From: a virus
Lineage: Duplodnaviria; Caudoviricetes
IMG/VR virus record: IMGVR_UViG_3300036784_000179
Coordinates: 1-59,390 of that record
Strand: one strand, 5' to 3'
Length of the DNA: 59,390 nucleotides
A program made the position numbers and the translations under genes. Below the pieces are notes generated by a model. The model saw only the letters and a program-made list of their open reading frames with translations. It ran no database searches and was not told where the DNA came from. Below, one piece after another: positions 10,553 to 10,726 of the stretch. Each line of letters begins with the position of its first letter. Position 1 is the first letter of the stretch.

Positions 10553-10726
10553 ATGAAAGCACTCATCGAGGCTGCCAAGCAGCGCGCAATTGCCGCCCGT
10601 GAAGCGGCCGCCACCCGCACGGGCGGTGCGTCGATCCGCACAGGCGGTGCGTCAATCCGCACAGGCGGTGCGTCAATCCGCACAGGCGGTGCGTCAATCC
10701 GCACGGGCGGTGCGTCAATCCGTTGA
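10553..10726 (+). CDS. Multi-core precursor peptide, 57 aa: 22-aa leader plus 5 x TGGASIR (absent from ORF track)
   Basis: MKALIEAAKQRAIAAREAAATR-(TGGASIR)x5-stop; differences between repeat units are all synonymous in this frame. Confidence 0.85.
   Translation: MKALIEAAKQRAIAAREAAATRTGGASIRTGGASIRTGGASIRTGGASIRTGGASIR
10619..10723 (+). repeat. 21-bp tandem repeat x5
   Basis: ACRGGCGGTGCGTCRATCCGY. Confidence 0.97.

Follow-up and report, generated by a model that had tools for sequence, protein, structure and literature searches.

The stretch of DNA considered here, referred to below as the window, is the entire IMG/VR virus record IMGVR_UViG_3300036784_000179 (Duplodnaviria; Caudoviricetes), which is 59,390 bases long and has a CheckV completeness of 99. 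An open reading frame (ORF) on its plus strand at 10553..10726 starts with ATG, encodes a peptide of 57 amino acids reading MKALIEAAKQRAIAAREAAATRTGGASIRTGGASIRTGGASIRTGGASIRTGGASIR, and is followed on the same strand by a hairpin, by the gene of a 222-residue protein with eight conserved cysteines (the 8-Cys protein), and by a transporter gene of the major facilitator superfamily (MFS). A preliminary description, made from the letters of the sequence, had singled out the ORF as an uncalled precursor of five identical heptapeptides, and in the following we consider whether it may be the multi-core precursor of a cassette resembling those for peptides that are made by ribosomes and modified after translation (RiPPs).

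The peptide gene, its repeat array and its relatives

The ORF begins with a helical leader of 22 residues (10553..10618) that ends in Arg, and continues into a repeat array (10619..10726) of five 21-bp units, each encoding TGGASIR, with in-frame unit starts at 10619, 10640, 10661, 10682 and 10703 and the stop codon TGA directly after the fifth unit. Tandem Repeats Finder reports the array at 10615-10722 with a period of 21, 5.1 copies, 96% matches, no indels and a score of 195. Three positions of the unit are variable (ACG/ACA, TCG/TCA and CGC/CGT), every one of them a third codon position, and the chance that three variable sites should all be third codon positions is 35/1330 = 0.026. The build claimed in the preliminary description, that is a 57-codon ORF with five identical heptapeptides, variation that is synonymous only, a stop right after the last core and a leader ending in Arg, is therefore confirmed in every part from the sequence itself. 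The DNA of units 2-4 is identical, and for this reason the near-identity of the units reflects recent duplication more than selection. Furthermore, the third positions of an antisense ORF at 10471..10803 (110 aa) coincide with those of the sense frame, and this ORF likewise consists in part of five identical units, RIDAPPV, for which reason the synonymous-only pattern cannot choose between the strands.

The peptide was also said to have no signal peptide, and this agrees with its lack of a hydrophobic N-terminal segment, the highest 15-residue Kyte-Doolittle mean being 0.41 as against 2.16 in a relative from a second phage described below, on what is a simple hydropathy scale and not a signal-peptide predictor. 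Neither the exact 57-residue sequence nor any of three shadow ORFs of the repeat is present in a collection of 15 billion proteins, in which the neighbouring 222-residue protein is found (P0010), and the term uncalled thus fits. The peptide belongs to no family in Pfam, PHROGs, NCBIfam or PADLOC, and an Atlas search with it gave no usable match.

Nine small proteins of 42-89 aa from other metagenomes do match the peptide in a word-seeded HMMER search (E 3.3e-7 to 5.6e-4). They have the leader in common with it, followed by two to three non-identical units of the types TGGASIR, TGGGMIR and TGSGAIR, and their stop is found at the last unit or one residue beyond. Across the ten sequences the leader residues L4, A7, A8, K9, A12 and R16 are invariant. 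The closest of the nine relatives lies on a metagenome contig (L002) and is the only one for which DNA is available; it was the one relative among 210 pattern stretches when metagenome contigs were searched by peptide alignment, whereas the same search found no relative among 172 pattern stretches in viral contigs and 187 in genome contigs, and a degenerate pattern of two TGGASIR units gave 0 stretches in viral contigs. Between the window and L002 the sense frame is identical at 28/42 residues and the best antisense frame at 22/41, and the 42 nucleotide differences are distributed over codon positions 1/2/3 as 11/10/21. As judged from this comparison the relatives settle the matter of the strand, and the ORF at 10553-10726 is a real plus-strand gene.

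A more distant counterpart is found in a second phage (L009), a complete 69-kb record with terminal repeats. The ORF at the equivalent place encodes a peptide of 92/93 residues, whose N-terminus is hydrophobic and which comprises a helix and four [FY]GGGGD[IM]R units of 24-bp period, and in its 92-residue form it has been called as a gene in three sources or pipelines; a relative of this peptide in turn (P0205) has two longer units of the Gly-rich variant. The leader-plus-repeats build put forward in the preliminary description is thus present both in the nine relatives and, with four units, at the equivalent position of the second phage. In the window peptide and its relatives the units number 5, 3, about 2.5, 4 or 2 and are 7, 8 or 12 residues long (with a period of 21 or 24 bp where DNA was seen), and the motif R-[TFY]-G-G-[GA] is kept throughout. 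Since copy number, unit length and DNA all change while frame and motif stay, the pattern is one of selection on a peptide rather than that of a DNA repeat. The preliminary description had proposed comparing cores and copy numbers in relatives, and the outcome is one of variable cores, with two to three non-identical units in the nine relatives and four in the second phage; it had also held that non-synonymous variation in relatives would speak against a precursor, and such variation is indeed seen, but it stays in frame, the motif is kept and the stop follows just past the last unit.

In both peptide subfamilies a basic residue terminates the leader as well as each unit, and cleavage after Arg would for this reason yield equal units. 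Cleavage after Gly-Gly, the other possibility that had been raised, is the poorer fit, since Gly-Ser is found at this place in one of the relatives.

The cassette and its eight-cysteine protein

The order of int-alpA-like RNA element, peptide gene, hairpin and 8-Cys gene is the same in all three loci for which DNA is available (the window, L002 and the second phage), and the MFS gene comes next in the two loci that extend that far, both of them phages, L002 ending earlier. The cassette is headed by a structured RNA element resembling int-alpA (Rfam RF02996) at 10458..10529 on the plus strand, which covers the full model (1-71), reaches 36.2 bits where 35.8 are needed for gathering, and is the sole copy in the window. 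In L002 (29.0 bits) and in the second phage (26.4 bits) it is likewise the best Rfam match found upstream of the peptide gene, in both cases below gathering, and its outer stem pairs better in these two loci than in the window. A weak Shine-Dalgarno-like GGAAAG (10538..10543, plus strand) can be read 9 nt before the ATG, and similar motifs are found in L002 (GGAG, 8 nt before the ATG) and in the second phage (AAGGAAG, 7 nt before the ATG). The peptide gene is separated from the one after it by a G+C-rich, terminator-like hairpin with a T-rich tail (10733..10771, plus strand), which has 9 pairs, 8 of them G-C. Folding energies of the hairpins are -23.1 kcal/mol (z -3.9) in the window, -30.7 (-3.1) in L002 and -29.5 (-2.0) in the second phage; the three sequences differ, and the hairpin of the second phage has no T-run.

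The MFS transporter at 11582..12724 on the plus strand (PF07690 MFS_1, E 9.2e-36; phrog_2034, E 1.8e-36) is the likely exporter. It is 40% identical to the MFS protein at the equivalent place in the second phage (E 5e-67), and the link between peptide and transporter that had been surmised for the window is hence upheld by synteny in both phages. The protein at 10102-10452, which has a hydrophobic N-terminus, several Cys and the HExxH-type motif HEILH, fares differently. It had been proposed as the processing protease, but it belongs to no family, lies upstream of the int-alpA-like element, and was found neither in the second phage (0/1 record, G005) nor beside the L002 peptide nor in any fetched locus by tblastn; it was accordingly dropped as a member of the cassette. 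Its exact 116-residue form is present in the protein collection. Going by synteny, the conserved partner of the peptide is instead the downstream 8-Cys protein.

The 222-residue 8-Cys protein (10781..11449, plus strand) consists of an N-domain of four strands and a helix (residues 1-75, 10781-11005) and an 8-Cys C-domain spanning about residues 78-222. It has 22 homologues in metagenomes besides itself, and in 15 aligned sequences C84, C140, C145, C161, C179, C185, C196, C199, H147 and W148 are invariant; it is probably a metalloprotein. The N-domain occurs only in close relatives of the long form that are paired with TGGxxIR-type peptides, and is absent from the short form in the second phage and from most of the family. 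The C-domain alone makes up proteins of 130-190 aa in metagenome-assembled genomes of six phyla or families. With a cut-off of E <= 0.001 a full profile search by HMMER returns 1224 representative clusters, and with one of E <= 1e-10 it returns 919; the family is sparse, being present in 5/401 genomes in a sample of one phylum. Nine of ten longer members carry no fused Pfam domain, and the tenth (P0032) combines FA_hydroxylase with a partial 8-Cys tail and is possibly a chimeric call. As a single query the 222-residue protein found no relative in viral contigs. It should also be mentioned that the sole GenBank phage record with a relative of the 8-Cys domain is MT836289.1, which is 11 kb long, has no annotation and comes from a faecal sample; the relative is encoded at 6709-7056 on the minus strand (46% identity over residues 84-204, E 2e-18).

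The family is unnamed, it has no clear fold match, and the cassette matches no curated leader family. Neither the 222-residue protein nor the HExxH protein has a match in Pfam, PHROGs, NCBIfam or PADLOC, and distant 8-Cys members likewise have none in Pfam or NCBIfam. In public records the members are called 'hypothetical protein' or 'nitrogen fixation protein' (e.g. in Pseudomonas chlororaphis), and the nearest Atlas clusters of the C-domain, which have no Pfam family, carry the latter as an automatic name; no basis for it was found. An AlphaFold2 model built on 150 aligned sequences reached a predicted local distance difference test score (pLDDT) of 95.1 and a predicted template modelling score of 0.90, and an earlier model from 15 rows, in which the C-domain was below pLDDT 50, was set aside. 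A Foldseek search with the model found nothing at E <= 0.001 either in the PDB (best 0.27) or in BFVD (best 6e-3), and a profile search of the PDB gave a single row at E 0.08. With VIA-align the highest Z against 48,161 chains was 6.0 (root-mean-square deviation 2.8, 61 aligned), all of the top rows covering residues 1-75 only and hence saying little about the C-domain, and the N-domain that it matched is a common sheet-plus-helix.

The complex of the peptide with the 222-residue protein, predicted by ESMFold2 from our own alignments, has a median score of 0.79, as against 0.01 for the best of three controls; a score of this height was reached by 58/80 solved complexes and 2/110 mismatched pairs, and at least 42% of the contacts agree between the runs. 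The confident contacts lie between the leader helix (peptide residues 1-18) and three stretches of the protein, namely residues 99-112, 124-134 and 203-207. The contacted surface is formed by a hairpin and a helix of the C-domain and holds family-invariant positions such as G98, G102, P107, R131 and E132. Taken as model confidence and not as measurement, the prediction supports binding of leader residues 1-18 to a conserved surface of the 8-Cys C-domain, the domain that the family has in common.

The surroundings of other family members furthermore link the 8-Cys protein to leader-type peptides. A small ORF on the same strand is found just upstream of the 8-Cys gene in 13/16 loci with a visible 5' side (11 identified by script, L035 by annotation and L005 separately; none in L006, L008 and L031; L033 and L034 not evaluated). 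Chance ORFs are common in G+C-rich DNA, and weight is laid only on those upstream ORFs that have features. Such features, as seen by eye, are leaders of the GG type ahead of hydrophobic cores in L003, L025 and L028, and mutual similarity within two groups, L005/L007/L032 and L030/L036. On the Nostoc plasmid NZ_CP040288.1 a gene annotated 'NHLP leader peptide family RiPP precursor' immediately precedes the 8-Cys gene, which has TOMM, Nif11 and radical SAM maturase genes among its neighbours, and the neighbours of the 8-Cys gene in L025 include a radical SAM gene and a precursor with a Nif11 leader (TIGR03798, E 1.1e-16).

As for the carrier, a tyrosine integrase at 2728-3243 of the window (PF00589, 74 bits) makes it probable that the phage is temperate, and the cassette is part of an island on the plus strand between minus-strand genes for tail fibres and lysin domains. 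The integrase, together with an orientation opposite to the flanking tail genes, fits a moron, i.e. an accessory cassette of the phage. A blastn search of 50,697 phage records gave no match to the DNA of 9600-12800. L002 has a transposase-like ORF (3-449, minus strand) and a ribbon-helix-helix-like ORF (1320-1649, plus strand) upstream of the peptide in place of the phage genes, as seen by eye, and the cassette would therefore also occur outside this phage context.

A proposed multi-core precursor and the competing explanations

We estimate at about 0.5 the probability that the ORF at 10553-10726 is the multi-core precursor of a new three-gene RiPP-like cassette carried as a moron by a temperate phage. 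The reading builds on the architecture and conservation of the gene, on synteny and on the surroundings of the 8-Cys family, together with the predicted contact between leader and 8-Cys protein. As in the general definition of RiPP systems there is a small ORF with a leader and cores (here 22 residues and 5 units, in a build that is kept in relatives) and a likely dedicated exporter in the cluster (the MFS protein, present in 2/2 loci reaching that far). Modification, cleavage, export and any role in the lysogen are what we infer from this. The transcript would begin with the int-alpA-like element, and translation would produce the helical leader followed by five tandem Gly-rich units. The hairpin past the stop would probably stabilise or partly terminate the message and so provide more peptide mRNA than enzyme mRNA. 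The 8-Cys protein would grip the leader helix on its conserved hairpin-and-helix surface and act on the R-x-G-G units, and what leaves the cell via the MFS transporter would be a short peptide in several copies or a derivative thereof.

If this is true, one short ORF without annotation provides the key to an unnamed but widespread protein family, which adjoins leader-type peptides in many phyla, and the 8-Cys family would be a candidate for a new peptide-maturation enzyme or leader-binding module. A multi-copy secreted peptide would furthermore join the cargo of temperate phages of Gram-negative-type hosts, among which peptide products are, to our knowledge, hardly known, and the cassette would be a small one of three genes and about 2.3 kb. 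A more far-reaching version, in which the peptide is a phage-borne new class of ribosomal peptide natural product, the 8-Cys protein a metalloprotein that docks the leader and processes the R-x-G-G array into several short peptides or a small molecule made from them, and the product exported by the MFS protein a signal or weapon of the lysogen, we offer tentatively and consider doubtful; were it correct, many RiPP clusters of bacteria would contain, in the 8-Cys family, a leader-binding maturase that has been overlooked.

Several observations weigh against a RiPP-like precursor. Neither modification, cleavage nor expression of the peptide has been observed, and no RNA runs holding the window sequence are listed. 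Two soil DNA runs, both possibly its source, contain the window stretch, and because the Logan short-read contigs of both break within the array, ending at 10632/10663 and restarting at 10675, the number of five copies is that of the original assembly alone. G+C content at codon positions 1/2/3 is 0.63/0.77/0.64, so the third position is not raised, and the units use A-ending codons. The peptide matches no RiPP leader model in Pfam/NCBIfam to E 0.1, and at E <= 10 there is one chance-level row. The conserved cassette contains no protease, and tblastn at E <= 1e-3 found no close MFS relative near the 8-Cys gene in the bacterial loci. DNA context comes from three loci, with a contig for 1/9 peptide relatives. 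In the predicted complex the partner has a pLDDT of 50, and the repeat part of the peptide is placed with low confidence. Finally, the 8-Cys protein matches no known fold or family of enzymes and could be a binder, a regulator or an immunity protein instead of an enzyme.

Some of these points are shared by the competing explanation that survives best, which we nonetheless judge unlikely, namely that the peptide is a real small protein which binds the 8-Cys protein without being modified or cut, as a regulatory, inhibitory or chaperoned partner, for instance in an antitoxin-like or anti-factor pair. The confinement of the predicted contact to the leader, the lack of an enzyme signature in the 8-Cys protein and the lack of a protease in the cassette would all be in agreement with such a pair. 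It leaves unexplained, however, why tandem units should vary from 2 to 5 with their motif kept and why the MFS gene should be conserved, and the neighbours of 8-Cys genes elsewhere are RiPP precursors and maturases.

An unmodified bacteriocin-like peptide, with the 8-Cys protein as its immunity protein and the MFS protein as its exporter, is decidedly less probable. In bacteriocin operons the immunity gene commonly comes next after the structural gene, and the GG-type leaders with hydrophobic cores ahead of family members in L003, L025 and L028 would suit such an arrangement. The predicted contact is however with the leader and not with the core, the Gly/Ser/Arg-rich units are not membrane-active in character, and a soluble protein with eight cysteines would be an unusual immunity protein.

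Marginally weaker again, and improbable on the whole, is the notion that the ORF is a regulatory leader peptide acting by attenuation, its translation determining whether transcripts continue past the hairpin at 10733-10758 into the genes of the 8-Cys protein and the MFS transporter. The ORF does lie in the 5' region of a transporter-containing operon, and a terminator-like hairpin begins 7 nt past its stop, with hairpins kept in L002 and the second phage. Yet a minimum-energy fold of 10453-10790 shows no evident competing anti-terminator structure, the hairpin of the second phage has no T-run, the peptide is conserved at the residue level across different DNA and is predicted to bind the next protein, and the version in the second phage is 92 residues long with a hydrophobic N-terminus.

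That the 21-bp repeat acts as DNA, as iterons or operator sites, with an incidental ORF, is very improbable. The period does equal two helical turns, and each unit of the window contains the 5-bp inverted repeat CGCAC-N5-GTGCG, but this inverted repeat is kept neither in L002 nor in the second phage, where the period is 24 bp and the DNA unrelated although the peptide motif is related; moreover, 10 relatives retain the reading frame with its start and stop, and no replication or regulator gene adjoins. The antisense ORF at 10471..10803, in spite of being longer and sharing its third positions with the sense frame, can hardly be the real gene, since it is less conserved (22/41 vs 28/42), would cross the hairpin and oppose the operon, has no Pfam or PHROGs family, is absent from the protein collection, and has no equivalent gene in the same-register antisense frame of the second phage.

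Comparison with known systems and other features of the window

Cyanobactin-type precursors are bacterial multi-core RiPP precursors. In the fungal Kex2-processed repeat proteins, or dikaritins, multi-core precursors are found as well (PMC7329392). The window peptide resembles multi-core precursors in being a single small ORF with an N-terminal leader, tandem short cores and a basic residue at the unit boundaries, and in that copy number and core sequence vary among relatives. It differs in that the cassette has no known maturase, protease or leader family, that the partner is the unnamed 8-Cys protein and that the carrier is a phage. With NHLP and Nif11 precursors it has in common a helical leader before the core, and the 8-Cys family adjoins the NHLP precursor in NZ_CP040288.1 and is found near the Nif11 precursor in L025; the peptide however matches neither model, its leader has only 22 residues, and its core is repeated.

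The microcin C system comprises the heptapeptide MccA, the adenylyltransferase MccB and the MFS exporter MccC, and shows that an MFS protein can export a modified heptapeptide. A unit of seven residues together with an MFS exporter on a mobile element is reminiscent of this system, but no ThiF/MccB-like domain was found in the nine neighbouring proteins scanned, the units end in Arg and not in Asn, and there is a leader and five copies. In the arbitrium system of Bacillus phages the small ORF AimP likewise gives rise to a short C-terminal peptide that is released outside the cell, and here too a short C-terminal peptide from a small phage ORF would be released outside, and its variants could define specificity groups. 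The window peptide differs from AimP in having no signal peptide by hydropathy and in having a repeated core, and G+C content and the hosts of the relatives differ too; no arbitrium receptor was recognised among the neighbours of the peptide, an AimR-like gene not having been searched for genome-wide. No published description of the window peptide or of the 8-Cys family was found in the literature searched, supplements excluded.

The RNA element at the head of the cassette resembles int-alpA, which Rfam types as a small RNA, in reaching the gathering score over the full model. A scan with the int-alpA core pattern yielded 12 further IMG/VR loci (L010-L021), ten of which have enough downstream DNA to judge, and the element stands about 25-65 bases upstream of protein genes, which as judged by eye include those for an integrase, three SAM methyltransferase-like proteins, an epimerase-like protein and others. 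Unlike what the typing as a small RNA implies, the window and the 12 viral loci thus place the element upstream of diverse protein genes in the manner of a 5' leader. Going by these positions, its role seems to be that of a generic 5' leader, or of a boundary, in phage accessory cassettes, and the int-alpA motif may need to be re-read in this way. In PMC13612085 the term 'int-alpA' denotes a gene order and not an RNA.

The plus-strand island that contains the cassette starts upstream of it with an ORF of 143 aa (9646-10077), which has a basic and then hydrophobic, signal-like N-terminus, a Pro/Gln/Ser-rich tail and no family. Its final ORF (12771..13187, plus strand) encodes a hydrophobic protein of 138 aa with no family, for which tblastn found no counterpart in the related loci and whose membership of the cassette is uncertain. 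Elsewhere in the window large tandem repeats with periods of 69/213/156 bp (23939-24789) and of 99/78 bp (5641-5935) are found in or near long minus-strand ORFs, and they are unrelated to the peptide gene.

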